Part shown: positions 27,807-61,330 of the stretch, piece after piece
How positions within the stretch are numbered: the first letter of the stretch is position 1
Layout of the letters: every line of letters begins with the position of its first letter
NCBI GenBank assembly: GCA_043821445.1
Contig: JBDRCT010000021.1
Span: 1 to 61,730 of the forward strand
DNA length: 61,730 bases
Direction of reading: 5' to 3'
Source: Candidatus Omnitrophota bacterium
GTDB taxonomy: Bacteria > Omnitrophota > Omnitrophia > Omnitrophales > Aquincolibacteriaceae
Program-made: the position numbers and the translations under genes
Notes under the pieces: model-generated
The model's input: the letters and a program-made list of their open reading frames with translations, nothing else
What the model was told of the DNA's origin: nothing
Databases searched by the model: none

Positions 27807-28160
27807 TCATATAGCTTTGAGCAATCCGCTGAGCATTTTTGATAATTCCGAAGCCCTTTCCCGTGACTTTTCCTCATTCTTTTCAGATAGATAATCCCTT
27901 CTTCTTGCGAGAGTTGCGCAAACAATACACTCCCTTACCGATCGTCTGGCTATCTTTATAAAATGCTGGAATTCGGCCTTGCTGCCGCCGCTTCCCTCCC
28001 CGATATTCAAAGCAATCGACTGTGCTGCCCGCTGAAACTAGCTTGTCAGCCCGAATTTCTCTTCCTTCGGAAATTCCTTGGTCCATTCATAAACACAATC
28101 CACATAATCCAGCGCCTTCCTGTAAACCAGTAGATTCTCGAATGAAAATTTTTCCTTCAC
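27807..28160 (-). pseudogene. Four-helix-bundle protein (23S rRNA intervening-sequence-protein family) with an in-frame TAG at codon 41
   Basis: Reading from the GTG at 28160 gives VKEKFSFENLLVYRKALDYVDCVYEWTKEFPKEEKFGLTS-TAG(28040-28038)-FQRAAQSIALNIGEGSGGSKAEFQHFIKIARRSVRECIVCATLARRRDYL... This is a full-length (117-codon) family-typical sequence interrupted by one amber codon. Confidence 0.75.
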
Positions 28161-28167
28161 GCTTCAG

Positions 28168-28202
28168 CCTCCATCTCCCAACTCCCGGCTCCAAACTCCA
28201 GG
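28168..28202. repeat. Heptamer array (CTCCNNN)n immediately 5' of the four-helix-bundle pseudogene, inverted relative to 27773-27806
   Basis: CCTCCAT CTCCCAA CTCCCGG CTCCAAA CTCCAGG. The AACTCC units are complementary to the GGAGTT units of the other array. Confidence 0.7.
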
Positions 28203-46300: not shown

Positions 46301-48211
46301 AAGTTTGCCTGCGGCCTGAAGTTTCTTAAGGCCATTCCCGAAATGCTCGATGTTGGCGAGCCATTTTTCTTTTAAGTTCGGAGTCTGGAGTCCGGAGTCC
46401 GGAGAAAGCTCGTCGATGAAGCGGGTGTAGCCGGACGCTTCGGCGATCCGTCCCTGCTCCGCCAGGTCGCGGATGATCTGGTCGCGCCATTGCTTGCGCA
46501 CGGAACTCGGAACTCGGGACTCGAGGTTCGTTAAGCCATTCGTATGCAAAAGCTTGTCCCTGGTAGCACGGACAAAAGCATCGTAGAGATTCACTTTGCC
46601 GTTTTTGACCTCGAAGTAGTTCTTCCAGGAAACGTCGCCCTCCATGTGCTCGCGATAAAGCGATTGTTCGGGAAGACGATCGATCTGGGGCACCACAAGA
46701 ATGTACGAGATCCCCTTCTCTTTGAATGTCTGTGTCAGCCCTCCGGTGTGGAAGCCCCCAGCTACAAGGATCGCTGTGTTTGCAGTGCGGGGCTCGTTTT
46801 TTTTCATTAGATCATTCAAATTTTTATAAAAAACTTCGTCGCGCTGCTCGGCAATGCGATAGAAACGAAGGTGGGGCTCGAGTTTTGTCCGCAATTCAGG
46901 ATCAGGGGTCCATGGCTTCACCATGGTCTTCTTCAGGATCGTCCAATCCTCAAAACTGAGTTCCAGCTTGGCGAGGCGTCCCAGAAGCGCCAGTTCTTGG
47001 GTTCGGACATTCAATTGCCGGATCGAGTCCCGGGTTGCGAGCTCCGAGTCTCCGATCATTTTTTCCGTTACCGCTTTCGTATAACGCTCGAAGTCTTCAA
47101 ACAGGCGCGTGCCTTCGATGTCCCGCAATTTCTTTTGATCTTCCACCAGGGAGGCGAGCTCACGGGAGACTTTGATCTTCACATTCTGTTGCTTCGCGAG
47201 GTCCTTCAGGAATAAGGCAAAGGCCTGCGGTGTCAACTGTGATGTCTGGTATTCCTGCCGCTTTCCGTAGAATGCTTGGAGTTCATGTTCAAGCTCCGGC
47301 GAGGCAGATCGACTCTTGAGAACCGACTCCATTTGTTCCGCGATCTTTTTGACTTCGATCGAAAGACTCTGTTCTGTTGTTTCTTGTCTCTTGTCTCTTG
47401 CTTCTTGCTTTTGGTTGATCTGAATTTCTCCAAGCAATACCGCGAGTTCCGAACCTTCGGGAGGCAGCAGGTATTGACTTAGCCCGCTCAGGACTTGCGC
47501 AAGGTCGGTCTTATTTTCGCCGAACTGCGCAAGAAGACGGTCGACCTTAAGAAGATCTCCGGGGTAAATCGCCTCTTTTTCCCGTTCTAGGTCGATGATC
47601 CGTTGCTGGAGCAATGCCGTGACTTCACCTTCTGTTTTCATGGCTTCTAAGAAGTTGGCGATCCCTTTTTCGTAAAGTTCCCAATCTTCGATGCCTTGAA
47701 AGATCGTTGTGTTTCCGCCAGAGGCGGATCCGCCTCCGGCGGAGAACAAAGCGGCCGCTGTCCCGCCGGTAAGCTCGCCTTTTTCGGAATAATCATCGAA
47801 CGTCTTACGGAGCAGTCCCTGATCCGGAAAACTCCGGAAGATCTGCGGGTCCAGCCTTTCCGAAGCTCCTTCAAGTCCGACGAGAGTGACCCCGTACTCT
47901 TTTTGAAAAAGATCAATAGCAGACTGGATACTGCGTTGGGCATCAGGAACGGAGTGGGCGTCCTGGATCAAGATCACTGTTTTGTCGCTTGCCCCACGGT
48001 AGATTTCCCGGATCTTTCCAATCTCAGCGGGGAGCGAGATATCCATCAAATCCTTAAACGGTGTGACAGGATCCGGACGGACAGAAGACACCGTATTCGC
48101 ATAGGCAGAAGGCATCGTCCATGTCACACTCGTGAGTGTGAACATAAAGACCACCCCCCAAACGATGGCTCGCAAAGCGGCGCCGTAGTTTTTCTTACTT
48201 TTTATGGTCAT
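31301..48211 (-). CDS. Giant modular ORF 1 (5,636 aa): signal peptide + conserved N-module + ~15 cargo modules + conserved C-module
   Basis: Uninterrupted 16,911-nt ORF. Sec-type N-terminus (MTIKSKK..AIVWGVVFMFTLTSV..AYA-N). Contains 15 RSExR junction motifs plus 1 RAEVR. Recognisable internal domains are listed as separate features. The terminal modules are paralogous to the neighbouring giant ORF. Confidence 0.85.
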   Translation of the reverse strand: MTIKSKKNYGAALRAIVWGVVFMFTLTSVTWTMPSAYANTVSSVRPDPVTPFKDLMDISLPAEIGKIREIYRGASDKTVILIQDAHSVPDAQRSIQSAIDLFQKEYGVTLVGLEGASERLDPQIFRSFPDQGLLRKTFDDYSEKGELTGGTAAALFSAGGGSASGGNTTIFQGIEDWELYEKGIANFLEAMKTEGEVTALLQQRIIDLEREKEAIYPGDLLKVDRLLAQFGENKTDLAQVLSGLSQYLLPPEGSELAVLLGEIQINQKQEARDKRQETTEQSLSIEVKKIAEQMESVLKSRSASPELEHELQAFYGKRQEYQTSQLTPQAFALFLKDLAKQQNVKIKVSRELASLVEDQKKLRDIEGTRLFEDFERYTKAVTEKMIGDSELATRDSIRQLNVRTQELALLGRLAKLELSFEDWTILKKTMVKPWTPDPELRTKLEPHLRFYRIAEQRDEVFYKNLNDLMKKNEPRTANTAILVAGGFHTGGLTQTFKEKGISYILVVPQIDRLPEQSLYREHMEGDVSWKNYFEVKNGKVNLYDAFVRATRDKLLHTNGLTNLESRVPSSVRKQWRDQIIRDLAEQGRIAEASGYTRFIDELSPDSGLQTPNLKEKWLANIEHFGNGLKKLQAAGKLSESGIAQLLKSITTAEPVLASVLVPGAEIRWPLSVPRSEVRATDAERLIEKIQEELRALRDPQEKIEVLSPLTLSEQELLLRYVLGNVKKEEEWMLRVFISHATELFGSIEDPELLVPGAQHPVRAVRSWATESLEALAEKNDDEIKQNLLKYLPQLLRVRKKEGDWENQKRLDHVLVYLGQKGAALKSVLADIRGNDPVSRQLVRILRWTEFVPALIQLDRERARDLVGSNGDILSLIALILAGHPDEEQHVLDQYCRGKARLADLRKFRKWALEARPGKVAVIEAERLGREQFLQLIKSLPDFEFEVTLTTSFWAGKQRYFVMCGDGGTVGGFPWMTLQNAVALHNHPPDANRPQDIVSSGDKNMIQNNFINRSVLPRLFAIQRDITTSRSLEMAEYGLKKGAKKRTAEIKGVYRGEQDIDRILEEVFQLSQISGRSEMRKTRSEARDNRLQGSSRRYFLGLCLKSFAFASVAGLPSVVLAQSSERTIFAARDWKIIGATDSGPGARPIRTPHGTFTEIKIVYKGDQIFSVKGNGYLRGVLPANYRGPNEERVDWGTSFVLPGYWSEGVYSHNPRITQAKFKSGKDGTVVLSGVMEDKKEAFQSKDFKMIFRKPLKESVEAEVSFTLKARRNFSIDADRAANHEGFKVLQFSSMNIGTAHDADFAIYQGENKAMVRSPTAGKNRFIVPQPQPLEHGLVYLTNEKPSSWGYRPTVFIQMLPDSTPSDFSAQGWIAESSNPNDDNLGAWIHFDRTKKTPYKKGNTIVRVHAVLGTTRPGLPLVAPASRSEARSSAGVPETEMMERFALLMDPAERARREIEEVIFSIGPGDGKFEAEITRDPHRAVVAADTYGVEYRDYHERFFRNDLTIQREAVFRPNLVLLNKDFQELLKAVPDRTLDALVLLHSDPEPLARFLADKGPIDKLKDGGKIYIKPYALRMYAEDTVALLEKNYKKQSGSRLFSVSVEGDYSSATPFYIFTKGAEGAAAVDVPDSNVTDGLFNLILGSDLLSGLSPETRGVLEGMVSFFPNLESSQQTSQELVRVLKWGDLHGVALQQEIGAVLARAMAEKIRGRTVKSHIVPGRSSSQRRSEARVAAFKTSQGLFIEEYGDTRRAVEQYARLMADTILDNNRYDRDTTYILPTGSTPIELYDAFIRIVASERIDLSRLHTFNMDEYYPGAAMKKLVPAIAVKQAGFLSSAVSTVVGSLMKRFVPTAKGPVWAEDIHSFRAFMEDKLFKHLRKFGFKDANIHFLNGNAEDFEAECRRYENSFPGRIDLGFGGIGRDGHIAFNEPIIIIGNDLIRKKLSGDQVREWEKKFADFNEFLLEQDVDFDQAVTMALANHFHIRTSNEFREELQGTLKASMKKDSWGPEDLGDLDGLIRGLLGQKVIFYVDEITNERKEQLAEIKAQVERSLGRPVQVVLSQEKPSAMRTRRVELAVPTIIDNMRDFSRIKEMPLQALTIGPETFRRAAKIAVLAFGENKADAVKKATQEPASSEVSASFLQGHPDATFAMDVKAGALLTRPRSEIREDHTPEGLRLLDEGFLRFTPDSLPDFNRRLNILEKNPINGLGINPLNGHMVSSYLWKHPLAQQHPFEMMPIRVIEAELYEKIDAHESNLLWFDERYIPIAGDGIYHPNGSVLSEQELKFAGLKKVFNASGEPVRVKMLVTGNRVFALPGPWVVPYVEEGIGIRILSTFDEISELAGEKVTRNNAGMILKRLAGQGKVRLKVAATIEFKGVGAASFLTSVVTPDALAGLDRKMVYIPGADYKKVTGTASRVGGGVGATGREASFAKGMDAMLRREGAQLLADTVYSSRLFNALTLPELIATKWQQTWYSVRMSFDTNRLAGLVSESYGPLPVWADHDLMEASYQELFQKESREGLDDIVLRYLMENMASNLRALWVTKRNRTRSSNITDNYGPLMQMIDTSVDSVKSFDGEEGARQLFADWRDYPNRFFQAMVHKIANLPVPVSGSLSYAVRRPYFGEAYLRLLLRDPGLVADAERAFAEADRTGSAGIGESEFMALTEEFLKKAFPPATNLQETENRRSDPPSQSEGRIRPDSPNRAEVRDVTVSQPGPGVVRLTSTGKELLTPHADGGYHVDDFVGEASKTRTVMYQGATAKEFLKRTNVFEHETQVVVPAGAEAIVTTEGESFKLSEPGVIGMSHHTTASVAVTRGDIVVITLDKSPAWYEWREEDSGKNVTGKAWEKGGVVVYRHRDRKNWYDLKNGVEGEMGWITDSTTQRFPRSRFPPIVGVSRVEYPEHSGVFSFHDLRTAENLHEHPILNGNWELVETYVVTRGAAALVYFIKDPTGHYRPEILYLRPGDAAFVQPGTIHDLLAIEAPYEHVVFFTPSVHQYGYGTFKRLVEDQEVGMDRAALVKEAMARLRSEIRSSDAVDPEFRAKVMEPIGEKLAERRNGQDYQILILVGASGNGKTEIAKLLQSQGVGEYGPEDIAFMETDDYLGSWSHETPFKLDFFKDDLDALLTQGKRLVIISGVYTPNFLTGYEDHIVDVLLDSPVEQSRLRALVRDGGIAPHKETYRMFKDAPRSIYDLVLTDIPSFSPPLKRSATGSSFSFVSPEIYGKRLGEQSYRVSVRDMDRIIDLIYRESERSGLVTWIDPLSNVLSDVEQLVRGVERTLESMRDKGNTSVIMTVRSFEKGLEVILDGQQDDGTRPRWGDSLSFMVDYIPERFFARKGWWVARTIDKPWEGTSPKPEGGVLAAFGFPSARIDQPRFKNSYSVFTSSAGQRSESREEKPVVGSLSERELQDKIAEIETLNLPGRYAPIIQWIKGEGNLYLPASELTEQTAIVDLGTSTGYGALDLHEAFPAPYIYAVDPKEPSGVAITLHPSDKIVLKKADQRLLGFDFADKGGRPLRVKVIILFNVMQFYRPDEVADIVRQSTEKLDEGGLYILGVRYPTGRTKEFPVLKLMILQKVNGAMVPRELILRQFTDNKSTNLADWVRFMSDDSARVFGPRLATIDRKINAVRTAMLPLEAATLLVQGSTPQIEHRIFQTQQQTLLEEGVQFRPFNFPSDLFGDGSQNESVPIAIPFDQPALRGGSLPFAGRSEMRDAGGQLRSANRISLPVRVVLPGAWKMMAPDLMVVDRLFFVYMTLLQRIAADRDLRETVLNFGDPIKADNSRERNIVHLFRTGRNGGNVAAFWHAKDAGASNLETGAQGLSILFYRLGKLLLEKLPHKEAERLKNGLARWTQRREPSTPDDLLSRFIGTTAVQVSDDTVRQPELEWVLRHERAHWALRVKANPADRETLKKGYVAFLRSANGPKVLREFFLKNKSSYDDQVAEDIERVKIGREDQVKFADEFWAQLAYPEEVFHESSPLVQVIEDLRRIDPVFEEAAVLLERLVRYEGDVKAGEDLRAIVADFGLHQMYPEAGLDAARSEMRDEALIKKIEAIQVTGNNQALYNFVFTGSLIPQRYGLFPGADITVHFFEIYKNGTRSVGWMALAPFPGTPFGEGWQGHRLILTDMHIEDHVDRGQGIRTGFLKSLDPGTSLWFLPLTNSTALVEMSRMAVEQLKKLPQADTLLEEFESLLDGLPEGMDLDDEEDLFVDILPLLYRYQETMEQNDGLTSLAELFKKTFLAKVAEKAGFSIKKVWMEKGYDASVEDDTFQLSVEAQKKEAKYEQVFPGAKKGIGVAEEQVQPSMSFERFSRASRIREKVNLIKSGITEGDPYSVLYFGAGIDLPNVLVTTGADEVVMVDSKGVMKEDVERVDRWFKGDFSKETAIHSVADLAEQSADLVRTKATRGFTREDELYGVSLPLSLWAALRSMGVDRMSWGTNENGILFIEFEKPFPAGKNRNVRFYFVRSGNLTEPGMFQSTGNPQLTKIMGREFDAYFQNGGQSLGHFYDHFIDQVRVKENGFWIVDDHYWPDADFRYHPRKKELVKVLQEFGFNVRDALEGDAELTEALRQTGYGEVNVILQNLGGQSLAPAVPGVRSEARVSSRKVEIPDSNHGINEETFYLRPGAGNVIHISVRGKDGMQFRIERGIDQKYVVLEFNPAGRQIGRTLVSGKTVYVGEPSQEDEFKDIHARPYSRGLEQIDFWIKGEGTTIKIVNAGTDVLDISGSFSLDREMGQITSEEEQRSEMRGLAEIDRLSLNQYEIAKRLMQIEEKLKETLNFATEESDAELGNAVAYATLLSMLKKYAGPLSSKRMLEIGSREGYFLMALRELGMSCDGLEIAPKMVSFGKREGLSVFLGSILDLPRSLPGKYDVTFSRQVLDVLDDVTFDGQFREYDETDLVPGIKQARHRELGRRMLANLAALTNSGGISIHEVLDTLDFPVTKEDYENAGFEVLDEVSDEPHKAKIVILRRVSAAATGIRSEMRAAAINAANGTQSTIRELYQSSEPESRISTGFHYETFVLKAADGQKVPVSARILPIEEAPYFYEGLPHEFSREKKQVDDGIAILEAALKDGEGTVEGHFIFSVKQSGEEVFLEIGNVLAQDDNQRTSGVARNLKYVGTRLIQLAVLLSQSDARTRGAIRFASRKQDPDAERFYDALRPYGLNKEPGENSIYWSLKAEDAAKFVRSVDGRVRSQAGEEGILRHFRQVLPVAVPQEKRSETRSGTTEMLKGRVILHVDDDPADRANIQSSLERAGAEVLSVADGKTALEILGKRDVDAVVTDAHMPEMSGAELIRKVQAIKPEISIVMATREDIDNRNDLAHQLGIAVVRKNQVVETLSKLFKPVVPGRSEVRAQKVQLVPLVVEKLANVLEPSRKGVVLDTSEVLAVYELARKDLPALIQVLKTAAEEQMAQRSVQAGKLYDRIKEYQEEIFRKWAARPADSKEAGISVALMMDEKTNQPFLSRFAQVLKTYAGRRKVELIADSALLNTPELRASAGLYREHPLDPKSVKGTLTVLGSNAQVPLGFDAAAEKAAISMVDFGFRPLSVAFKAGNTPDDVLMRDHLELLLAVTLLHMAELIAERKKEDGPVTAAWLKTQLEAFFGIGGMFQANADGSLSILGAVVQQYLAQSAVGKAA
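31304..32155 (-). other. ORF1 C-terminal module (aa 5353-5636), related to the ORF2 C-terminal module
   Basis: Similar length to, and loosely alignable with, ORF2 aa 3951-4220. The extreme tails are similar: ...GAVVQQYLAQSAVGKAA versus ...LTSFIAAQKAMGASA. Confidence 0.5.
32171..32548 (-). other. ORF1 module aa 5222-5347: response-regulator receiver (REC) domain
   Basis: Has VILHVDDDPADR, DAVVTDAHMPEMSGAELI (phospho-acceptor Asp context) and ISIVMATRE. Bounded on both sides by RSETR/RSEVR. Confidence 0.7.
33281..33976 (-). other. ORF1 module aa 4746-4977: class I SAM-dependent methyltransferase domain
   Basis: Motif I MLEIGSREGYF, motif II CDGLEIAPKM, then YDVTFSRQVLD and GGISIHEV. Confidence 0.55.
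37097..38035 (-). other. ORF1 module aa 3393-3705: class I SAM-methyltransferase-like fold
   Basis: Motif I-like IVDLGTSTGYGALDL, followed by YIYAVDP and ILFNVMQF, then EGGLYILG. Confidence 0.4.
38051..39121 (-). other. ORF1 module aa 3031-3387: P-loop NTPase/kinase-like domain plus unknown C-terminal half
   Basis: Walker A ILILVGASGNGKTEIA followed by an acidic ETDDY and a hydrophobic strand LVIISG. Resembles small-molecule kinases of the uridine kinase/PRK type. Confidence 0.45.
39137..40090 (-). other. ORF1 module aa 2708-3025: cupin-fold domain in the C-terminal half (possible sugar-phosphate isomerase type)
   Basis: Cupin motif 1 ENLHEHPILNGNWELVETYVVTRG (HxH...E...G) and motif 2 GDAAFVQPGTIHDLLA (G..P.G..H). 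Confidence 0.5.
41726..43018 (-). other. ORF1 module aa 1732-2162: glucosamine-6-phosphate deaminase / 6-phosphogluconolactonase (NagB/Pgl) fold with two large insertions
   Basis: Motifs in canonical order: YILPTGSTPIELY, HTFNMDEYY, IHFLNGNAEDFEAECRRYE, GFGGIGRDGHIAFNEP, ALTIGPETF..AKIAVLAFGENKA. Insertions of about 40 aa and about 130 aa. Confidence 0.7.
46381..46404. repeat. Heptamer array (GAGTCYG)x3.4 inside giant ORF1
   Basis: gagtctg gagtccg gagtccg gag. It is the reverse complement of the CGGACTC family. Confidence 0.75.
46501..46521. repeat. Heptamer array (CGGRACT)x3 inside giant ORF1, inverted relative to 46381-46404
   Basis: cggaact cggaact cgggact. Same unit family as the ORF2 (CGGGACT)4. 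Confidence 0.75.
47383..47410. repeat. Heptamer array (CTTGTCT)2(CTTGCTT)2 inside giant ORF1
   Basis: cttgtct cttgtct cttgctt cttgctt. Encodes part of NQKQEARDKRQETTEQ. Confidence 0.8.
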
Positions 48212-48537: not shown

Positions 48538-51500
48538 TTACGCTGAGGCCCCCATGGCTTTCTGAGCCGCGATAAAACTCGTTAGATTGGCCATTAACTC
48601 GCCTAACCGGCCTTCCCTGTCCAACATCGCAATAGCAATGAACGGAATCATACCTTCCAAGGAACCCAGGAGCTTGTCCGCCGCCAAAAGCGCCGAGGCG
48701 GTTTGCTTGAGCGGACTCGTTGCATCCCCGATCACGCTCAAAAGATACTTGCGACCGCCGATCTTGGCCTGCACCGCAGGATCTTCCTGGTCCATAACGA
48801 GCGCTACCGCTGTACCGCGAGGAGCGGCATCATTATAGAACGCCGTGAATTGAACGTTAAAGTCGGATGCGTTCGAAACCGCATTCACCTTGAAATTTTT
48901 TCCGAGGACATCGCCAGCACCCACGGCAAGAGCCTTCTCGAAGGCTTTGACATCATCGACATGCGCGATCAGCGCCAGTGTCACCTGGGCTCTCGGGTTA
49001 TAGCGTGCAAAAGCTACCAATGGCAGGACACTCGCCACATCCGGAACTCCGTGGCGTAAATCAACCAAGAGTCTTTCCTTGGAAGCCCTCGCGGAATGGG
49101 ACAAGATCGTTTTGAAAATGGTCCACTTGCTGAACGCCGCAGGAATGGCCGGCACTGTGCTGAAATGTTCAGGAAAAAGTTTTTGAGCGATCCCGGTAGC
49201 GACCCCCGCAGCAAACACCTTCGCTGCGGTCGCGATTGAAAGGATACGCGCGGTCACTTTCTCGGCCGTGATCAACGCGGCTTCAAGCGTCGGATTCCGC
49301 TCAAGAGAGATTTGTCCTATCGAAATGTTCAAGTCCCCGATGACCGCTTCCCGCACTTCCGAGCGGGAGGCTTCCCCTTGATCTTGTGGGATTGCGGGTG
49401 TAGCCGGAGTTTCGGATTGCACAACAGGAGTCGTGGGACTCACTTTTGCCGGTTTTTGACGCTCAAGCACCCGTTGGACTGCAAAAGCGGTGGAAGCGGT
49501 CAATCCTGCTGTTGCAATTTCTTTTACCCCTTGCAAAAGCGGTAGGATCATTTTTGCCAAGACCTTCCCCAGTTCCACGCCCCACTGATCGAAACTGAAA
49601 ATATTGAGGATGAACCCCTCCGCGGCAACCTGATGCTCATACATGGCGATCAATTTTCCGAGCATATAGGGAGTCAACTCATCGATCAAGATCAAATTAG
49701 TGGGTTTGCTCCCCTCAAAGGTCTTGTGTCTTGCCAACCATAGGAAATCTTCCTCCGTCCAATTTTCATATTTCTTTGGATTTTTTGCCTGGTCCGCTTT
49801 GAGTTCCGCTAAAACTTGAGTCGTGGACTTCCCGACCGCAAGGGCTTCCGTCTGACCCAAAAGGTTTGACAGGAGCACTTGATGATGCCCCGGCACCGTA
49901 TGCGAAGGATTGATGAAACCGATGAAGTCCTCTGGTATCACATCCCCCTGATGCGGTTGCTGTTGGTAAGCATGTTGACCGTTTGTCATGGCTTCCCCAA
50001 AAACCGAAGAGCTCGTGCTATACGTCACACGTTTGCCATTACGGTCAATGCTTTTGCCGTTCGACTCCATGAACAATTGCTGAAGATAGGCCCCCAGACG
50101 GCTTAAAAGCTGGGAGTACGGCGCCACAATAAAAACCGTCATCTTCAGAAAAATACGGTTCCAGATATCCAGAAGGGCCTTCAGTACCGGGATGTTTTTG
50201 GCGAACGGTGCCGTCCGGAAATGCACATCCATCTCATGGGCGCCGGCGAGCATTTGGAAGAAATTCTCCGGCCCGATTGCGAGCATGATCGGAAGACCGA
50301 TCGCCGACCACATGGAGTAACGACCGCCGACCCAATCCCAAAATTCAAACATATTCGCCGTATCGATCCCGAATGCTTTGACCAATTCTTCCGCTGTTGA
50401 GACCGCCATAAAATGACTCGCGACCGCCCTCTCGTCGCCTTGGTAATGTTTCAGGAGCCAATTTTTGGTCGTAACGGCGTTCATAATGGTTTCTTGTGTC
50501 GTATAGGTCTTGGACAACACAAGAACAAGCGTTTCTTCGGGATCAAGTTCCTGCGGCACGCCCGGCATTTGCCCCGTAACCTTGCTTGCGACATCCGCGC
50601 CATCAACGTTAGCAACGAAATAGAATTTCATACCTGTCACCCGGGATGCCTCCAAGGCCAAAACTGCCATCTCAGGCCCAAGATAAGAACCGCCGATCCC
50701 TTCGACTACAACATTTTTAAATTGCTTGCCGGTATATCCTTTCCGTGCTCCGGAATGGATTTCACGGACGAATTGGGCCATTTTATTGAGAACTTTCAGC
50801 ACGTCCGGCATCACGTCTTTGCCGTTGACGATCATCGGCCCTGCAGAGATCCATTCTCCGGTCGCTTCATCTTTCTTGATATTACGCAAAGCTGAATGAA
50901 AAACCGGCCGTTTTTCCGTTTCGTTGATCGGAGCTCCGGCGAACATGAGATCGATCGACTTCCGAAGTCCCGTTTTCCCGGCAAGCTTGACCAAGAGATT
51001 AAGGACCTGCTTTGTGATAAGGTTCTTGGACCCGTCAAAATAAAAGTCCCCGAGATCCACGGAGAAGTTCTCACGTCGTGTAGGATCTTTCTCGTACGCT
51101 TTCGCGATGTTCATTCTTTTCACGAACGGAGCAAAAATCTTGAGCGTCATCCATTCCCACGATCTTGACGGATTGACGCGCGGCAATATGCCCTCGCGGA
51201 CCTCAGAGCGGGTTTGACCGGACCGGAGTTCCTTCACTTGGGCCTCAAGCTTTTGGATTTGCTGTTCGAAACTGGCCAGACTGGCCTTCGCCTGCTCGCG
51301 TTGCGATGTTCCGCCTGGCAACAATTCCGGCTGGTCCGTATAGGCAGACACTATCAAGTTCCCCATTGCCTCTTGCAATATCCGGATCTGGGCCAAGAGC
51401 CCTGGGATCCGTGCATCGGTTCTCGCTTCGGAGCGCGCAGACTGAAGTTTTTTGAGCGTTCCCTGGAGCCGTTTAACGCGGCTCGGAATATCCACCAACA

Positions 51501-54500
51501 ACCGGGTCTTTGCTTGAGGGTCCACATCTGCCACTGGTTCCAGTTTTTGGGCCGCCGCCTCCAAACGCGCGATCTTGCGTTCCAGGCTGATGATCTTCGG
51601 ATTTTTTTCCCTTGCTTCCGAGCGACGTTCTCTTGCTTGACGATTGCCATCAAGGATCTGTTGCGCCTCACCGGCCTTTCGATCGAGCCACGCCTGAGCA
51701 TGTTTCAGAATAGATTTCGAACGCGCCAGTGTTTCCGCCTTATCTTGTCCATTTCTCCAGCCCAAATAGAATCCAGGCAAAGCACCGTTAGAGACATCGG
51801 TTTTGTGATAAACCCATGCACGAACGTCCGCGTTTGCAAACTGCTTCTGGAGATAGGATTCCAAATCCAACCACAAGAGATAGCTCTGGCCAAAACTTCT
51901 CCAATTTCCATCAAAAAGGTCTGAAAGACGTTTTAGCCGGATCATTTGAAACCCCTCGACCGGCTGGTTTTGCCTCCATCTGGAATCTTTCACGTTTTTC
52001 ACTTGCAAATCTTCTTTCAAGGCGTGAATCACGGCCAAGACAGAACGCGGCCTGACCTGCTCGCCTCCGTAAATCGACATTGTCTCAGCTCTCACCTCGG
52101 AACGCTTTTCCACTTGAAGCGTTATCGATTCGAAAGGCTTACCTTCAGTAAGCGTGACCTGCAGGTCCGTACCGGACACATTGTGAGGAACATTCTTGGT
52201 CAACCAGGTTCTCGGAAGCTCGGTGACCTTTTCTCCGGAAAATCTCACTTCAAATCCATTATCCTTACTAAAAGAACCCGTTGCCTCGATGGTCAGGCCC
52301 TGGACCGTCGTCCGGACGTTGCGGAAGACTCCCTTTCTCGCCGGCATGTCAAGCTTCACGACACGGACTCTCCCCGTCAGCCTGTCTAAAACCCATAAAA
52401 CTCCTCTTCCCAAAAGAAACTTCTCCAAAATGGTACGCAGGATGTTTCCCAGCCCGGGACGGGAAAGACCGAAGTACTTCCTCACGGACGGAGGAAGATC
52501 CTTATCGGCAACGATGTAGCCCACAAAATGGGATTGGTCCTGGGAGGCTAAATTGATTTTAAGATTGACGGGTTGCACTTGCTCTTCGTGAGCTGCCGGC
52601 TGCCTTTCCTGGCGGACATAGATCTTCCCGTTATCAAAATCAATGTGCGTGACCCCGGAAAACGGATACGACCTGTTTACCCTTGCGGAATATATTTCGA
52701 GATCCCCCGGGATACCTTGGTGCATCCGGAAGACAATGGAGGGGAGGGATCTTATCCCCAGTTGATCGAGTCGCTGCCCGATCGCTTTGCTGCTCATGAA
52801 TTTCGTTGCCACTGATGCCGCAATCGTTCCTTCCGTGAAAAGGCTGCTACGGACCTCGGAACGGGCGACCATGGCCGTATTGGCAGCATTCGCCATCGAA
52901 ACGGCCTCTTGAAGCAACGTGTGGGGCGGCGCAACGATGATCTCTACTTGACTTTGACGGACAAATTCCTCGCCCGCTAATCCCGTGATGAATGGATCGA
53001 GGTTGTCCCTTTTTGCCGACGGCTCCGCCTTCCAATTGGCCGCGAGGACGAGTGTCCTTCCGTTCCCTTTGTCCCCTGTTGCGCTTATGATCCGGCCCAT
53101 CTTGGAAAAACTTTCCAATTTCAGGCTCGCGCCCCCGACCAGGAATCCGTCGATATCGGGCTGGATCGAAAGACCGCCAACATTGTCCGGCTTCGCCGAA
53201 CCGCCGTAGAGGATCCTCATATGCGCCGCGAGTTCCGGAGAGTAGGTCCTTGCAAGCCAATTCCGGATCGCTTGATGCACCTCCTGAGCCTCTGCCGGCG
53301 TAGCATTCAAACCGGTGTTGATGGCCCAGATCGGCTCATAAGCGATCATGCTCACCGCCTTTGCGACATCTTCTTGGCTCATGCCATGGAGCGCCTCTCC
53401 GAGCTGACGAAGAACAAACAAAATGTGATTTCCGGCGTCTCTTACGCTCCGGGGTTCGCCCACGCAAAGCAATTGCACCGGAGCTGCACCCTTGGCTGCC
53501 CATTGCAACTTTTCATTGATGACTTCGTCGGTATCCCCGAATTGTTCGTACGTCCTCAGAAGTTGCCCGAATGCGGGCGAACTTTTGTCGGTACCGTACA
53601 CTTCCACCATCCGGTGCCGTCGCTCGCTGTGACCGGTCAGTGATGCTGTGACACCGACCTCTTGAAGATGCTCATAATTGACCGAACCTGTCGCTGCGCC
53701 CGTTTTAAGTGAAAAATGCTGGGCAAATATCTTGATCGGCCTCGCTTCCGCCCGCGCTTCCGAGCGGGCGGGTTGGATCGCTGTAGCGAGGGCTTGCGGC
53801 ATAGCCGGAAGCGGGGCCACATGGCCGAGCGCATACTGCTGAAAATAACGGCGACTGTCCTTTGCACCCAAAAGGCCGTACACCTTGACCTGCCAGTCAT
53901 TCAAACGCTCGATCACTTCCTTTTCCGTGGCCTCCGGCATCCTTGTCAGATAAGGAAGCAACGGCGCGCAAAGGTACTTCACGAGATCTTTCAACTTGCT
54001 GCGGGCCTCTCCGGGGACATCATTACTGTCCGAAACCATCATCAGAAGAACCCTGCGACGATCTTCGGTTTTGTTGACATCAAGACCGCGTTCGGCATTT
54101 ACTACTTGAATAAAACGATCCCACTTCGGAGGCAGCATTGCGCCGGTCTTCTTATCTTTCTCCGGCTGTCCGAACTTTACAGTATTGCTTTGGATCCCTA
54201 CCGCATACGCTAAAAGATCTTTCGGCTCGATCTTCAATGCCGCAGCATAATCCTTCAATACCGGGGTCAGGCTCTCCTCGACCGGCTTCATGAACAGCAC
54301 CAAGAGATCCCACATCACATCCGCCATGGCCGGGTCTTTCTGCGCCACGGCCTCAAGAACGATGTTCTGGAGCTGTGTCGCAAGGTGCACTTCCCCCACC
54401 CGGTGTTTCTGCAGGATCGGAAATTGATCGTCCGTCAGTTTCGAGGCGCCGTGCTGCACACCCTGGACTTTCAGAAGTTTCTCGTGGATGCGGAAGACGA

Positions 54501-57500
54501 TCGTGTTCACGCGCCGGCCCGCCACCCCATGGGCCGTCCCAGTCTGATAACTGATCTTGTCCAAACCCGCGATATCCACCCCGTACTTCGCCTTAAATGC
54601 AGCATTCCGGACCGCAAGCCCTTCCTTAACGCCCGCAATGAACGCAAGCGTCCCTTCCACTTCACTCGGCTTATCGGCCAACACCTCATCATCAATATGA
54701 CGTTCCTCACCGCCGATCAAGGTGACCGTCCCGCGTGCCATCAGTCCCTTGCTCTTGAGCTCTTCATCATGCGCGCGGATCTTCACGATCTGATCCACCG
54801 TCGCGGCGATCGTATGCTTATGGATTTCGCGGTACCGTTCGATGCGGCCCTGGTCCACCCAGTTCCAAAGTTCCGGCTCCGGCATGTCATCGATCCAATG
54901 ACCGATCGATTCAAGCGTTTCCCCGGCTTCCAAACGCTTCCGGACCTCATTCATGAGCTTGGACAGACCTGTCGGGTTGTCCGGCGTGACGGATTCCGCG
55001 TACAGTTTGGACAATAAAATAGTATCCACGGCCGTGGATGGATCAAGATCGATATGATAACCGCGGGCCGTGATCATATCGCGGATCTCAGCCTCGAATT
55101 TATCAAACGCTTTCTTGCGCTTGGCAAGGTCCACGTACGGTTCGCGTTCATCCAAGGTCATCGCTTTAAACTTCTTCGCGAACGTTTCCGGATCTTCGCC
55201 GGCAGGGATCTTCGTCTTATCCAAGCCGAAAATGTCATCCAGCTTCAGCTGACGGTGGTCCGCCTGGGCGATGATCGGAACTTTCGAGCCCACGAACGCG
55301 TGCGCAATTTGCGCGGCCGCAAGGAACATCTCATTCGTTTTAAGGCCGGAATAACCTTTTTCACTCGCGGCGAGTTCCGCGATCCCGCCGGCGTTCAGCC
55401 GGTCCAGCGACTCAAAGAAAGAGATCAGTTGGATGATGCCGCCCGCGCGCATGTTGGTGGCGGGGATCACCCACACCTTATCTAGATTTGCTTTCTCACG
55501 ATAAAGCGAAGCCGCGGACATCATTTCGACACCCCGGGCATTGGTGATGGCGCTCGCGATCCAATAAGCGGCATGATTGACATCCGCATTGGGATTGTCT
55601 GTCAGTTCACGCGTTAGATCAAAAAGACGGCGATTCCCTTTCAACCCCTGCAAGATCTCAACGCCGTTTTCGTTCACACGAACAATATCCGAAAAATTCT
55701 GCAGCAGCTCACTCACCGACCCCGACAACGCCGGCATTTCCTGCATCTTCACCATCCGCACTTCGGAGCGGGCAATGGCTTCCTTCACGCTGACGAGCGA
55801 AGCGACCGGAATACCGCCTTCCTCCAAGAATTGAGGGGCGATCCCCTGCATGCTTCCAAGATAGACCTTTCTTTGAGAGACCATCGCGATGATCCCCGTA
55901 ACGGTCTGGGTCTCCGGTTGTCCAAACGGCCTCCATTCCAATACCACGGGGACCGCAGAGTTTCTGTAGGCCTCAAGGGAGGTTTCATGGAACGAATCCC
56001 TCAGAAGCGCATAATAGTCCGTCCAAAAAACAAGATTGGTCGTGATGTTGGTCTGGGCCCCGAAGAGCTGCTCGTGTCCCCGCAAAGCCAGCACGGTCCC
56101 GGTAGCGTTATCGATCGTAGAAAACACAGAGACGCTCTTTCCTGCCGGCAATACGACACCGTTCGCAGACACACGGATCCCGTGGGATTCCAACTCACTT
56201 TGGTGCGCCTTGAGATATTCCTGATCGATCAGTCCTGCCAGGTATTTTTGGATCGCGGTCACCTGCTCTGCGGCGGTCCTTGCTTCCGAACGGTGAAAAG
56301 ACACTTGAACGCCGGTCCCATTGGGCTGCATTTGGGCTGTCGCCGAGATCCTGATCGGCCGGAGGATCCCATTCGTCCCGTTGTTCCGGCGAAGGACCAT
56401 CTGAAAGGCACTGAGTTGTTCGGACTGTAACCCCAAATGGAAGAATACGCGATCCTCATGGTTGCGTCTCTTCAAAAGAAAACCCACAAGCTGCCAAGGT
56501 TTGTCCGGAAATTTGGCCACGACGGCGGACGGAACCTCAAGATCCTGGGGCAGCTGATGTTCGTGGATCGTTTCAGAGAGAACTTCCTTCAGAGCAAATC
56601 TCTGGACCGCATCGGGGATCGAAACGACACCCCACTCCAAATGTGACGCCGAGACGCGCACCGTGGGACGTCCCGGGAACTGTTGCAACGAGCTTTCTTG
56701 GTCACCCGTTTGTTCTTTTTTCTCGTTCAAACGCTCGAGCTCCTCCATGGCAAGGTCCAGGTTCAGACTAACATTCCGAATTTCTGAACGGTATGCGGCA
56801 AATTCGATCGATCCTGTCCACGTAAAGGATTCTTGAGTCGTCGTTCCACGATCAGCACCGAAAGCTGGATATTTTCGGGCAGAAGCTGGGGTCCGTGTGG
56901 TCATTTGCCAATCGATCGCAACCTCTTCCCCCTGAGAAACGAACTGGATACCCGGATCCTCACCTTGTTCGAGCGCCATTTCAATAAAAGTGAGTTTGTC
57001 TTCGGGAACCGAACGCCAATCGACACGGATGGAGGGCCCTTTGCTGAGATAAGTGCCCCCTTGGCTTCCTACGGTCGTCGGTAGAACCCCGACGTTTTCC
57101 TGGGCATACTGTATGAGCAATTCATTGATCCTTTTCACCGCCTGAGGGAAACGGCCAAGTTTTTGGTGGGTCTGCCATGCTCTGAAAGCCACAAAACCCG
57201 TAACCGAAAGAGCGATTCCGCCTGCGACTGCCGGTAACCACGACCGCGTCTCTGAACGACCTGCCTTGGCATTCCTGACCTTCTGGGAAGGATGAGGACG
57301 TTTTGTGTTGGGTCCGTGAAGCGCCGTAATTTTTTTATGATCTTTGGTCCTTTGCACATTTTTCGTTGCCGCTTTTGCCCTCTCTCTCGCAACTTGCTCC
57401 TTCTGATTCGCTTGTTGGCGCTGGCTATCCGTATTACGAATTTCCGAACGGACAATTCCTTGTCGAGCGTTGCTAAAAACTACATTAAATCGAAAATCAT

Positions 57501-60500
57501 GTGCCGCTCGTAAACCGACTAAATAGGCTTCTATCCCCGACGCACCTTGTCCTTCAAAGGAAAGAACCATGGGGGGATATCCCGGCTTCATCACTTCCCA
57601 CCGAAACGTTCTTAACGTCTTTAAACCGATGCTGGGAAATATTTTCCGGTCCAAAACTTGCGGTTGTGCGTCATGAGCCTGTTGGAAGGTTTCGACTATA
57701 GTTTGATCTTCCCGCACCGTTAACTTTACCATTTTAATTTGATTTGCTTCAACCCCAGGCAACGGTACCGGCAATCCATATCTACGCTGCTCAAGGATTA
57801 ACTCTTGGCCGGAATTGGAAATCTTTATCCGTTCGCGAATGCCATCATCAAAACCCACATTGGGACCAAAAACGAGTTGCTTTTCCGAATTTTCAACTTG
57901 GAATAGGGCCCTCAAAAAACCAACGAGTTTTTCCGCCCCATCTTGCTGGCTAAAGTCAAACGTGATAGCGCCGCCGCGCATCTCCGAGCGTTTCCGAGCA
58001 TCGGACGAAGACAACAACCCAATTTGCGCATCTAAGATACCCTCCACAACCGCGTCCGGGGCCATCGCCCCCATAGTAAACATCCCTTTTGCTCCGCGAA
58101 GCGCCGCCGCTTGAACCGTGCGAACAGTAGAATGAAATTTCGCTATCTCCGCGCGAAGGGCTTTCATAGCCTCCGGATTAGCAATTGCGGTTTCATTGAC
58201 GCGGTCAAGAACAGCCTGAAGTGCCCCTAATTGCTTTCGGCCCTCTTCTTCGGTTATGGTCGGATCGCTTATGAGGAGCCCACCCACTCTTATCTTCCAC
58301 GGTTCGGTTATTGCTTGACGTGCTTCCGAACGGCCAGCGACCTGCAAAGAACTGAGAATGTCAATTGCTTGCTGAAGATCAGGAGGAAGGTGATCTGTTC
58401 TGACCTTTGTTGCAAGAAATGCACTGACGCTTCGAATTGTAGGAATAGCTTTATCGAATTCTGCCAGCCGGATTTGTTCTATGGCATACGAGAGCGATCG
58501 ACTGTAAGAGCTTGAAACGGAATCCACATCCCAGATCAAATCGCGCACTCTGTCTACTAATTCTATAGCCTTGTCTATTTTTGCCCCCGCACTTTTTCCC
58601 AGCCTTTCGAAACGGCGAAGTACCGCTTCACCCAATTGATTCATTTCTGCCGCTGAATTTCCAGAATAGAACTCTCGAAAAAAAGCCTGCAAGGCCTCTA
58701 AGGCTTCAGGACGTGACATAACCCCTTTTTCCAGATCGATCAGAACCTTTTCGGGTTGCACCGTTCGCGCCTCTGAACGACTGGCCTTCGCATTCCTGTC
58801 CTTCTGTGACGGCTGATGGGCTTTGGTGTTGGGTCCGTGAAGTGCCGGAATGATCGCATGATCCCTGGTTTTTGGCACATTCTTCGTTATCGCCTCCGCC
58901 CTCCTGATCCGGGCCTGTTCTCGCTCAAACGTTTTTTTACGCTGACTATCCGTATCACGAACTTCCGAACGGCCGTTTCGGGTTCCGCTGTTTGCATTAT
59001 CGAGCCGGCTATCAATCGGAGCAATTGAAGACCGATTCCCGTCAATAATATGCCCAGATCTGTCCCGTTGCGGAGTCACTTTGTTCCCTCTTCTGTCAAC
59101 AAGTTCTCCGTTTCTCCCCACGCTAACAGTTGTTCGATATCCCCTATCATTCGTAATCTCAAAACTCCGTGCCTCCGAACGGCCCGCCTTGGCATTCCTT
59201 ACCTTCTGTGACGAATGAGACTGTTTTGTGTTGGGTCCATGAGTCGCCGGGATGATCGTATGATCTTTGGGCCTTAGTACATTTCTCGTCGCCGCCATTG
59301 CGCTTTCGCGTCTGCGCTGTTGTTCCAAGGCGGCTTCGCGATCGACTGGGCCTCTAGTGGGAGCAGAAGGGACTACATTAAGTTTCTTAAGAGCGGAACC
59401 AGAGAACGCCAAAGAAAGAGCATCACGAATCATGGCCGGTTGTGTCAAAATTAAACCGGTAATAACATCACCAACTTTGGCCAGAAAATTGCGAACTTCC
59501 GACCGCGAAAAAACGGTTTCCATCGCGGTGGGATCCGAACCAAGGACGGCGCTCATCTGCGAAGTTTCGAATTCACGGGCACCAAGAATGGAACGCAAAT
59601 AAACTTCATGGTCGCGCTTGGTGACTTCGGTGATGCGCGGCGTGATCTGAAGATAAGAACAGTTTTTGGCGGCAGCGAGTTTTTTCAGACCATCGGTGTG
59701 GAACCCTCCGGTAACGATCACGGCGCGGTTTTCTTTTAGTTCACCCATTTTTTGGAGAGCGTTGGTAAACATGTGCTTTTCACGGACAACTGCAGTGGAG
59801 TAGAAATTCATGGCCTGCTTAAAAACACCTTGGATTTTCGGCTCAACGCTCAAAGCGCAAAGCGCAACGTCCTTTTTTGGATTTTCTCGTTGTGCGTTGA
59901 CCGTTGTACGTTGCGCGAGGTTCAATTCTTCATACTCACCTCTTGTTAACTCTAACTGGAAAAGTTTTCTAAGAAGACGCAGTTGACGGGCCTGGGCGAG
60001 ATATGCTTTTTCATCCGGAATTTGGGCCAAGGTGTCCTGGATGCGCTCTTGTAACCGCAAGGTCTCTGTATGGAGCCCTTTGCCTTCCAGTTCCTGCATC
60101 AGGATGATGTGTTGGGCATAAAGCGTCCAGCTCGGCCATGATTTCATGGAAAAGTCTTTGGGGAGTTTTTCGAACGCAAGATCGAAAGCGCGGCGCAACG
60201 GGGAGTACTCGCCTGCGGCACGGGACTCGGGACTCGGGACTCGGGACTCGCGCAGAAGCACTTTAAAACTACTGACGACGTCTGCTGAGATCCCCCGTTT
60301 TTCTAGTACCTTGATGAAAGCTTCCGCTTCCTGGTGCGCCTTTTCATGATCGATCTTGGAACCGATCGCCTGCAAGCGTTCATAACGGACAAGAAAAGGA
60401 TATTCGTTCTGATGGAAAGCATCGGCAAGGTCCAGCTTCAGGTGTTCTTTGCTCGCTTGGGCGAGGACTTTGAGCCATCCTTCAAAAGAAAGCGTCCCTG

Positions 60501-61200
60501 AATCCAGTGCCGTTTCCTGACGGACAAGTGCTAAGAGGTTCTTATTGAGTTTCGTTGTGAATCGACGTTCAAGGACGCTGCGGAGTTCGCGTAAAGAAGC
60601 CTGCGCGGCTTTATCTGCTTTTACCACCGCAATGAACGCTTCGCGGTCTTTTTTGTAGGAATCTAGGTTCTCGACCCCAAAGGCCTCGAACCCGCTCAAC
60701 GCACTACGCTCAACGTTCAACGATCCTTTCTTTTCCGTTGCGCGTTGTCCGTTGCGCGTTGCGCTATTGTGATTAATCAGAAAATTCTCCGGGCCGGTGA
60801 GATATCCTTCCTGCATGAGCTTATCCGTGACCTTGCGGTTGAAGTCCGGATGATCGGGAAACATACGAAAGAGTTCAGGCTGGAGTTTGTTCGCTGCACC
60901 TTCAAGGAGCATGAGACGAACCTTGGAATTTTGCTCGATGTAACCGAGGAGTTTTTCGATGTTTTTCTCGGCCTCATAATTGCCGTGCGCGGACTGGATA
61001 TGGATGAGGGCCGGAGCTGTGGGGTCGCCCACGATCGTGTCCGTCACCTGCCCGAATTCAGCGGGGATCTCGAGCGTCTTAAACGGGACAAGAGACACTT
61101 CGGCCTTTGGCATGCTTGCGTAACCCATGGGGTTGAGGTTCGTCACCACAAAAATGAAGACAATAAAACCCGACACCATTTTCAATAAACGAACATTCAT
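48538..61200 (-). CDS. Giant modular ORF 2 (4,220 aa): signal peptide + conserved N-module + ~17 cargo modules (aldolase-like, TPI, PGI) + conserved C-module
   Basis: Uninterrupted 12,663-nt ORF. ATG at 61200 with an AGGGGGA Shine-Dalgarno 7 nt upstream (61208-61214). Sec-type N-terminus ([19 protein letters not shown]..GYA-S). Contains 18 RSExR junction motifs. Confidence 0.85.
   Translation of the reverse strand: [4220 protein letters not shown]
48541..49350 (-). other. ORF2 C-terminal module (aa 3951-4220), related to the ORF1 C-terminal module
   Basis: See feature 31304-32155. Follows the last RSEVR junction. Confidence 0.5.
49366..51195 (-). other. ORF2 module aa 3336-3945: full-length glucose-6-phosphate isomerase (PGI)
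   Basis: Collinear with canonical PGI: [91 protein letters not shown]. Confidence 0.9.
52864..53751 (-). other. ORF2 module aa 2484-2779: triosephosphate isomerase, circularly permuted (beta3-beta8 first, beta1-beta2 last)
   Basis: Order found: [50 protein letters not shown], then [10 protein letters not shown] (nt 53029-53037 = NWK) and [10 protein letters not shown]. Confidence 0.8.
53767..55755 (-). other. ORF2 module aa 1816-2478: class II (metal-dependent) fructose/tagatose-bisphosphate aldolase-like domain with a long C-terminal extension
   Basis: Family-ordered motifs: [20 protein letters not shown] (DH), [45 protein letters not shown]. The three His positions used as Zn ligands in class II aldolases appear retained. 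Confidence 0.55.
57259..57435 (-). repeat. ORF2 intragenic basic repeat module, copy 3 (aa 1256-1314)
   Basis: [59 protein letters not shown], bounded by RSEIR and RSETR. DNA-level similarity to copies 1 and 2 is visible. Confidence 0.8.
58780..58956 (-). repeat. ORF2 intragenic basic repeat module, copy 2 (aa 749-807)
   Basis: [59 protein letters not shown], bounded by RSEVR and RSEAR. Confidence 0.8.
59182..59340 (-). repeat. ORF2 intragenic basic repeat module, copy 1 (aa ~621-673)
   Basis: ...[37 protein letters not shown] followed by RSEAR. Confidence 0.75.
59842..59915. repeat. Heptamer-periodic palindromic element, copy B (in frame inside giant ORF2)
   Basis: CTCAACG CTCAAAG CGCAAAG CGCAACG - loop TCCTTTTTTGGATTTTCT - CGTTGTG CGTTGAC CGTTGTA CGTTGCG. 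Encodes [27 protein letters not shown], which is absent from the ORF1 paralogue. Confidence 0.8.
60221..60248. repeat. Perfect heptanucleotide tandem repeat (CGGGACT)x4 inside giant ORF2
   Basis: Direct reading gives cgggact cgggact cgggact cgggact. Lies in the coding region for aa ~318-327 (RVPSPESR). Confidence 0.9.
60695..60763. repeat. Heptamer-periodic palindromic element, copy C (in frame inside giant ORF2)
   Basis: CTCAACG CACTACG CTCAACG TTCAACG - loop ATCCTTTCTTTTC - CGTTGCG CGTTGTC CGTTGCG CGTTGCG. Encodes [26 protein letters not shown]. Confidence 0.8.
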
Positions 61201-61330
61201 GCTATGTTCCCCCTTTAGTAAATGGATTTTAAAACAGATTTTAAAATGAATTTTAAAAAGCTATCCAAAAGGTAGCATGGGTTCTTTAAAAAGCAAGGGT
61301 TGGCTATTAAAAATTTTCAATTTTTCCACG
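61201..61330 (-). promoter_or_regulatory. AT-rich leader/promoter region of giant ORF2 with three phased GATTTTAAAA repeats
   Basis: SD AGGGGGA at 61208-61214. GATTTTAAAA at 61225-61234 and 61237-61246, and GAATTTTAAAAA at 61248-61259, with 12-bp phasing. Confidence 0.3.

Follow-up and report, generated by a model that had tools for sequence, protein, structure and literature searches.

The 61,730-nt window analysed here, chromosomal DNA of a Candidatus Omnitrophota bacterium, contains three palindromic elements with arms of tandem heptamers. One of them is located between two genes and the other two lie inside a single giant open reading frame (ORF), which raises the question of what kind of element can be accommodated in both settings. 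An original prediction, made from the letters of the window, regarded these elements as nucleotide-level insertions tolerated in a protein, similar to the Rickettsia palindromic elements (RPEs). Our analysis supports this, with a probability of roughly 0.7 that the three elements, here named E1, E2 and E3, are nucleotide-level heptamer-array elements with RPE-like tolerance, and with the amendment that the resemblance to RPEs is behavioural only. The original prediction overlooked heptamer arrays of other families in the same window, as well as a gene of the PF05635 family bracketed by such arrays. Because of these, E1-E3 belong to a different and broader class. The chances that they are related to the intervening sequences (IVSs) of 23S rRNA, as miniature ORF-less IVS-like stem-loops, are about even.

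E1, E2 and E3 are located on the minus strand and follow the same plan, with four heptamers of the type NNCAACG, a loop of 13-18 nt and four heptamers of the type CGTTGNN, for a total length of 69-74 nt. E1 (22364-22432; 4+4 units, 13-nt loop) lies in the spacer between the gene for purine-nucleoside phosphorylase (PNP) and ileS, and consists of CGCAACG, GTCAACG, CTCAACG and CGCAACG, the loop AAAAAAATCTTTT, and CGTCGAA, CGTTGCG, CTTTGCG and CGTTGTG. E2 (59842-59915; 4+4 units, 18-nt loop) consists of CTCAACG, CTCAAAG, CGCAAAG and CGCAACG, the loop TCCTTTTTTGGATTTTCT, and CGTTGTG, CGTTGAC, CGTTGTA and CGTTGCG. E3 (60695-60763; 4+4 units, 13-nt loop) consists of CTCAACG, CACTACG, CTCAACG and TTCAACG, the loop ATCCTTTCTTTTC, and CGTTGCG, CGTTGTC, CGTTGCG and CGTTGCG. 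The predicted coordinates and letters were borne out, and the pattern CAACGNNCAACGNNCAACGN{8,38}CGTTG matched the window three times, at E1, E2 and E3 only, versus no match in 100 dinucleotide-preserving shuffles. Heptamer-phased CAACG/CGTTG runs of at least three units were found at E1-E3 and at one further position, 20273, as an unpaired three-unit CAACG-like run.

Hairpins of about 25 bp had been predicted for the three elements. Folding into hairpins was confirmed, but a continuous 25-bp stem was not, as the RNA hairpins are imperfect and consist of 5-bp helices with 2-nt internal loops between them. Folding energies were -33.4 kcal/mol for E3 (z-score -4.9), -33.8 kcal/mol for E1 (z -3.0) and -25.8 kcal/mol for E2, the latter with a weak z of -1.4. 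The shared orientation held for E2 and E3, both with a loop rich in A on the sense strand; the loop of E1 (A7TCT4) is almost self-complementary and leaves its polarity ambiguous. Compensatory pairing was tested at the NN spacer bases, and 48% were complementary in register versus 49-54% out of register. Therefore, no covariation is claimed for the hairpin, and the match between the arms is one of families, not of individual base pairs. At gathering thresholds Rfam could not assign a family to the window or to eight loci, and its E-value mode returned chance-level matches only.

The giant ORF that hosts E2 and E3, ORF2 (48538-61200, minus strand), encodes 4220 aa without interruption, and both elements keep its frame (aa 429-453 and 146-169, respectively), as had been predicted. 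ORF2 starts with a signal peptide and an N-terminal module of about 560 aa (N-module), which harbours E2, E3 and a GGGACTC array and is paralogous to the N-terminus of the giant ORF1. The residues encoded by E2 and E3 have no counterpart in ORF1, again in agreement with the prediction. Fourteen homologues of the N-module were aligned with ORF2; in the following, L numbers denote fetched loci, in which gene calls are crude ORF-based estimates, and P numbers denote homologous proteins. The alignment revealed three indel-hypervariable sites, site A after GPENFLIN, site B before GYSPLR and site C after LELTRxEYEEL. E3 occupies site A and E2 occupies site C. An AlphaFold2 model of aa 1-560 of ORF2 reached a mean predicted local distance difference test (pLDDT) score of 76, and its internal segments with pLDDT below 50, aa 149-168, 319-331 and 442-447, correspond to sites A, B and C, with low confidence at site C extending over aa 431-460. 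According to this model, E2 and E3 are predicted to sit in disordered loops of the N-module.

The occupancy of these three sites differs among the orthologues. ORF2 possesses CAACG elements at sites A and C and four GGGACTC units at site B. Locus L108 (56% identity) has no clear array at site A and CAACG arrays at sites B and C, and L077 (30% identity) is empty at sites A and C, with CAACG at site B and a GTACG-type array at a fourth site. All three sites harbour GTACG arrays in L120 (P0001), while L146 (P0004) possesses CAGCGAC at site A, GGGACTC at site B and CAGAC at site C. No arrays were present at sites A, B and C of L121 (P0005) and L147 (P0006). Site A is empty in P0005, P0006, P0007, P0009, P0011-13 and ORF1. 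The CAACG element at site C has orthologues of E2 in L108 and in P0007, the latter known from the protein alone. At this site ORF2 has four left units and an 18-nt loop and L108 three units and a 13-nt loop; the difference of one heptamer and five loop bases amounts to 12 nt, and thus the reading frame is preserved. Further in-frame copies were found in L016, L077, L108, L120 and L146. Taken together, the alignments show that orthologues gain and lose elements, or exchange one for another, at fixed sites that permit them. The original prediction had pointed to related strains for differences in presence, and to the homologues for any conservation of the peptides. Sites were found empty, filled or refilled by other families, and the homologues do not conserve the peptides, the same loops being empty or carrying heptamer palindromes of other families.

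Similar variation was detected outside ORF2. The genes of the window are housekeeping genes, including ileS, tyrS, and genes for menaquinone synthesis and ABC transport, and the PNP homologues at 83-93% identity are labelled Candidatus Omnitrophota. E1 fills the 83-nt spacer between the TAA of PNP (22438-22440) and the ATG of ileS (22354-22352), at 5 nt from the stop codon and 9 nt from the ATG. In four syntenic relatives (L148-L151) this spacer measures 72-98 nt. The palindrome is of the CAACG type in the window, of the GTAC type in L149 (z -6.95) and of the CCACG/CGTGG type in L150 (z -1.4); L151 has a weaker GGAAACG-like palindrome and L148 a decayed CAACG-like remnant (z -0.5). E1 was also considered as an intrinsic terminator, which was rejected, as it has no T-tail and was unmatched in the terminator scan.

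Another site with variable indels was found in the ABC_transp_aux gene, at about aa 354. The window possesses an in-frame (NNACAGA)n array there (26675-26702, minus strand), whereas L150 has a palindrome of the CCACG type and only a short loop is present in L151. The array of the window is identical in 25 of 28 positions to the left arm at site C of L146 (L146 3864-3898), although the two genes are unrelated and belong to different genomes. Both stretches encode QTTDQRLQ.

The remaining heptamer arrays of the window were searched with a scan for four tandem units with at least 75% self-match, and Tandem Repeats Finder (TRF) was also run. Ten period-7 arrays were detected versus 0.1 in shuffles, while periods 5, 6 and 8-12 were at background. 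No tandem period other than 7 is enriched in the window, and period 7 is a property of the genome beyond E1-E3 alone. Besides the elements already described, ORF2 harbours a perfect (GGGACTC)x4 array (60221-60250, minus strand) in frame at site B (aa ~319-331), for which no clear second arm was found. The N-module of ORF1 possesses, both in frame and on the minus strand, inverted GGAGTCC/GGAACTC arrays with a coding spacer of about 85 nt between them (46373-46531) and an unpaired (TCTCTTG)n array (47370-47416). The inverted pair belongs to the same family as the arms that bracket the PF05635 gene of the window.

This gene (27807-28160, minus strand; PF05635/TIGR02436) is predicted to encode a 23S rRNA IVS protein, an Avd-like four-helix bundle, and contains a single in-frame TAG at 28038-28040. 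It lies in the 446 nt that separate two ABC-transporter genes, enclosed by a pair of inverted arrays, namely (GAGTTCG)n at 27773-27804 and a weaker partner, (CCAACTC)n at 28171-28199, which was seen by TRF; the whole cassette extends from 27773 to 28199 on the minus strand. The corresponding site contains the full cassette in L123-L125 and is empty in L149 and L151, where the spacer is 6 nt long or the stop and start codons overlap. L150 retains only the last ~20 nt of the ORF and the right arm, with eight units. This deletion derivative is a direct case that shows the decay of ORF-bearing cassettes into ORF-less heptamer arrays.

Heptamer arrays also bracket PF05635 genes at nearly all of about 25 other loci, a sample picked by similarity to one query. 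Arrays were found at nine out of nine metagenome loci (33-90% identity), with the cores GGAGTTC, TAGTTCN or CAGCCNA, at six out of six IMG/VR loci, with a different core at each, and at most of eight plasmid loci, mainly cyanobacterial. Lag 7 ranked first among the periodicities of 16 out of 17 flanks downstream of PF05635 genes, and the inverted-alignment scores of the flanks ranged from 12 to 31, versus ~9.5 for random pairs. One of the loci, L141 from Azospirillum, is a genuine 23S rRNA IVS with a stem built of heptamer arrays. In L072 (Ca. Udaeobacter), the PF05635 gene carries CAACG-type arrays on both sides. Since the arrays bracket PF05635 genes as they do in 23S rRNA IVSs, E1-E3 can be read as miniature IVS-like elements, with the even odds given above. 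The precedent is the Coxiella IVS, in which two to three heptameric repeats (GACAGAT) of strain-variable number precede the S23p ORF and RNase III cuts the stem at the first repeat (PMC4990558).

Two further observations concern the PF05635 loci. Across L123-L145 and L072, the array core shifts with protein divergence. On the cyanobacterial plasmids L139, L140 and L143, a four-helix-bundle gene is located inside cas operons, between cas10 and cmr3 or between cas6 and cas4, and co-oriented with them.

The CAACG family itself is not restricted to the window. A scan of species genomes, in a set of 185,579 genomes, revealed at least 117 CAACG loci, versus about 34 predicted by a uniform-random estimate, and several metagenome-assembled genomes of Omnitrophota contain two to three matches each, so the further copies anticipated by the original prediction do exist. 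Among the matches listed, 59 are labelled Verrucomicrobiota, 9 Omnitrophota (12 with three unlabelled look-alikes), 13 Acidobacteriota, 9 Gemmatimonadota and 5 Planctomycetota. The same matches include 52 full two-armed elements, with 3-9 units in each arm, and the three copies of the window bring the total to 55. Of these, about 24 are wedged in between two co-directional genes, one is in a convergent setting, about three are in divergent settings, and five to eight lie in coding sequence. The loop of Omnitrophota copies starts with N-AAAA-R on one strand, which is the mRNA sense strand in 10 of 13 of these copies. Loops are also alike at unrelated sites, as E3 and L108B share 9 of 13 positions and E1 and L016 share 10 of 13. 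A scan of viral contigs with a stricter pattern detected two loci (L001 and L002). A hidden Markov model search for PF05635 in the 117 CAACG loci detected only L072 and L036, of which L072 alone has clear CAACG-type arms.

Many families of one class coexist in Omnitrophota, namely CAACG, GTACG, CCACG, GGAGTYC/GGGACTC, CAGAC and CAGCGAC, and in this class two inverted arms of about four 7-nt units each flank a short A-rich loop. Their habitats are transcribed DNA, either intercistronic operon spacers, mostly a few bases past a stop codon and some 10 nt ahead of the following start, or, in frame, disordered surface loops of proteins, which tolerate them. Unit number would change through replication slippage, while in coding copies selection would restore the frame and avoid stops; the off-consensus unit CGTAGTG of E3 may reflect the latter, as it is the unit in the frame where CGTTGAx would read TGA. 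Hairpin-templated conversion would keep the arms complementary as families. The transcribed hairpin would act as an RNase III or mRNA-stability determinant, by analogy with IVS stems or repetitive extragenic palindromic (REP) sequences, and elements would spread through a mechanism that possibly involves the PF05635 protein.

A more far-reaching and clearly tentative proposal is that inverted heptamer arrays are the cis-elements of a widespread selfish element of the IVS type, whose full form encodes a pentameric PF05635 (S23p/Avd-like) protein. In Xanthomonas, S23p forms a homopentameric ring (PMC4990558). Under this proposal, the protein would bind the 7-nt repeats with about one subunit per unit, which would fit the four to six units per arm, and would help hairpins to spread or persist in transcribed DNA of any kind, whether rRNA helices, operon spacers or protein loops. 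The ORF-less E1-E3 would then be miniature derivatives. If true, this would account both for the excess of heptanucleotide repeats, including the cyanobacterial repeats, GGGAATC of Xanthomonas and GGACCGG of Geobacter, and for the function of PF05635.

Several results weigh against the main reading of E1-E3 as ORF-less, IVS-like stem-loop elements. No mobilising enzyme was found, the scanned ORFs of the 61.7-kb window including no transposase, and the PF05635 cassette site, the single filled-versus-empty comparison, showed no target-site duplication. There is no base-pair-specific covariation backing a selected hairpin, and the folding of E2, L148 and L150 was no better than that of shuffles. 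Among the PF05635 loci, L139 and L144 have period 8, and L143 and L144 have direct instead of inverted arrays; a PF05635 gene with CAACG arms was not found in any Omnitrophota genome among the loci examined. Furthermore, all five PNP-ileS spacers possess a palindrome, and their cores (CAACG, CCACG, AAACG, GTACG) are 1-2 bases apart, so that, judged from these spacers, in-situ concerted evolution would fit as well as re-insertion.

The main rival is a turnover of pure in-situ microsatellites through slippage and hairpin-templated conversion, with no transposition and with a shared mutational bias behind the tie to PF05635. We regard it as possible but rather improbable. Besides the five spacers, it would be consistent with the different unit numbers of orthologous copies, as at site C of ORF2 and L108, and with the NN positions, which lack in-register covariation. 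Heptanucleotides are, as cited in two later papers, the most over-represented class of long simple sequence repeats in many bacteria, an excess ascribed to slippage of the polymerase (Mrazek 2007, via PMC4679880 and PMC4692102). Nevertheless, local slippage does not explain why the loops, which are not repeats, are alike in length and sequence across unrelated sites and genomes, nor why a 28-nt array is identical in 25 positions between two unrelated genes. It also has difficulties with a PF05635 cassette that some genomes have and others lack, at a site which otherwise measures 6 nt or is an overlap, and with a bracketing of PF05635 genes far above the background density of about 10 arrays per 62 kb.

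Selected cis-acting RNA or DNA signals, either 7-nt-repeat protein sites or hairpins that tune the neighbouring cistrons, with coding copies acting via pausing or mRNA cleavage, are an unlikely explanation. In their favour, the wedged elements are tightly placed, with a stop codon at a distance of 1-20 nt on one side and the next ATG, in most cases, at 8-15 nt on the other. The persistence of a hairpin at the PNP-ileS junction in several relatives and the sense-strand bias of the loop would also agree with such a role, and a recognition with a 7-nt period has a precedent in one cold-shock protein per heptamer (PMC4679880). However, the same sites hold many unrelated cores, to which a single reader protein is unfit, and they are empty in other orthologues. 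Copies such as those of L148 and L150 are decayed, no Rfam family matched, and E1 is not terminator-like.

Phase variation, in which the gain or loss of a 7-nt unit would shift the frame and turn an expensive giant surface protein on or off, is considerably less plausible. It would fit the location of the arrays in giant ORF1 and ORF2, all within the first ~610 codons with none in the remaining ~27 kb, and a unit length not divisible by 3, as well as the different numbers of heptameric repeats among Coxiella strains (PMC4990558). Nonetheless, low slippage is expected from only four imperfect units, and no unit-number polymorphism was found among near-identical proteins of two clusters, in which the differences were start-codon calls and one gene fusion. 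The same elements are present in the spacers of housekeeping operons and within a gene for ABC transport, and phase variation leaves the pairing of the arms as palindromes unexplained.

There is very little room for E1-E3 as REP sequences with their associated tyrosine transposases (RAYTs), or as miniature transposable elements with inverted repeats (MITEs) mobilised by a DDE transposase. A RAYT is a Y1 transposase similar to those of IS200/IS605, and its gene is often flanked by the repeats. Similar to REPs and the bacterial interspersed mosaic elements (BIMEs) formed by them, our elements are imperfect palindromes located mostly between co-directional or convergent genes, downstream of coding regions, with some inside ORFs. 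MITEs have terminal inverted repeats with a duplication of the target site, and a full-length insertion sequence related to them; inverted arms are present in E1-E3. To our knowledge, tandem-heptamer arms have not been described for REPs or MITEs. A REP is a palindrome of 20-40 bp with a terminal GTAG or CGTC tag, and REPs within ORFs are documented and occasionally share their site in related species (PMC3733652). E1-E3 lack this tag and end in CGCAACG or CTCAACG on one side and CGTTGTG or CGTTGCG on the other, and REP/RAYT membership was rejected on this basis. Neither a RAYT or other transposase among the scanned ORFs nor an insertion sequence was found in the 61.7-kb window, and no duplication was evident at the cassette site.

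Selection of the segments as protein-level repeats or linkers, for their amino-acid sequence, can be dismissed as hardly credible. At the sites in question, orthologues have either no peptide or an unrelated one, non-coding spacers harbour elements of the same nucleotide architecture and, in agreement with the original prediction, a period of 7 nt yields no repeated peptide over four units. In favour of such selection, the segments are hydrophilic and in frame, and the site C peptide is similar in ORF2, L108 and P0007. In ORF2 and L108, which were read as DNA, this similarity accompanies CAACG heptamers that have been retained; P0007 is known as protein only.

Regarding heptamer-array elements with RPE-like tolerance, the comparison with the elements of Rickettsia is one of behaviour, in which RPEs were compared by description. 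RPEs are longer than 69-74 nt, and we know of no heptamer periodicity in them. E1-E3 differ in their occurrence in Omnitrophota, their length of 69-74 nt, their tandem 7-nt arms, their many families and the bracketing of PF05635. According to the summary in PMC3733652, RPEs are short palindromic repeats found between genes and in frame in ORFs that remain open, to which they add a tolerated peptide. E1-E3 are likewise both intergenic and in frame in open ORFs.

The closest architectures are the inverted GGGAATC pairs of Xanthomonas and the four-heptanucleotide elements of Geobacter. The GGGAATC heptamers often form convergent inverted arrays that are capable of stem-loops, are mostly intergenic and vary in unit number among relatives, with the paired type retained (PMC4692102). 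Pairs of this type consist of two closely spaced arrays with two or more tandem 7-nt units each, convergent on opposite strands, and their G-rich unit can adopt a G-quadruplex. Similar to these simple sequence repeat pairs and to the heptamer repeats of cyanobacteria, E1-E3 consist of tandem heptamers in inverted arrays, with 4+4 units placed 13-18 nt apart. However, the CAACG core has no G-tract and therefore forms no G-quadruplex, in-frame coding copies exist, and the phyla are others; the paper on the Xanthomonas and cyanobacterial heptamers draws no link to PF05635 (PMC4692102). In Geobacter metallireducens, four tandem heptanucleotides (GGACCGG) are found in and between genes as single arrays and are regarded as putative regulatory RNA (PMC2700814). 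Their core is unlike CAACG, and they were described as single arrays and without a comparison of orthologues (PMC2700814). Beggiatoaceae likewise have heptamer repeats, placed immediately upstream of start codons (PMC4679880). With the IVSs of Coxiella and Leptospira, E1-E3 share a stem of inverted tandem-heptamer repeats, a variable number of units, an optional and decay-prone PF05635 ORF within the class, and the behaviour of a selfish element (PMC4990558). They differ in being ORF-less and in residing in mRNA, in an operon spacer and a protein-coding ORF, and not in helix 25 or 45 of 23S rRNA; Rfam detected no rRNA in the window. Cleavage of the stem by RNase III has been shown for the Coxiella IVS and for other IVSs (PMC4990558).

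The extension of heptamer-array palindromes to in-frame coding copies with documented re-use of sites is the advance over these descriptions. In-frame palindromic insertions are known mainly in Rickettsia and from some REPs, and RPE-like behaviour is now found in Omnitrophota, with a distinctive heptamer-array architecture. The re-use of sites is unusually well documented, in three loops of one module, one operon spacer and one ABC-transporter loop. The tie to cassettes encoding an IVS protein is an unexpected and probably under-appreciated result; the openly searchable literature gave us no paper that deals with CAACG arrays, with Omnitrophota or Verrucomicrobiota, or with a link between PF05635 and heptamers generalised beyond Coxiella. 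Together with a true 23S rRNA IVS, the bracketing of PF05635 genes over several phyla provides a testable handle on the excess of 7-nt repeats and on the role of IVS proteins. In the annotation of giant Omnitrophota proteins, the heptamer segments do not represent domains, and alignments and structure predictions should mask them.

The N-module itself matched no Pfam family, and a Foldseek search with its model returned nothing significant, with weak EreC/ChaN-like matches (E ~0.8-3). In relatives, the N-module is either a separate protein of 650-690 aa or fused to the downstream giant gene, variants that were seen across L121/L122, P0018-P0020, L149 and L150. The giant genes beside the N-module possess, according to precomputed Pfam assignments, domains of metabolic enzymes, among them cytidylate and guanylate kinase, CofD, PGI, hexokinase and glutamate dehydrogenase. 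Just upstream of the ORF2 start codon, at 61220-61270, the window also contains an AT-rich 24-nt tandem repeat in about two copies.

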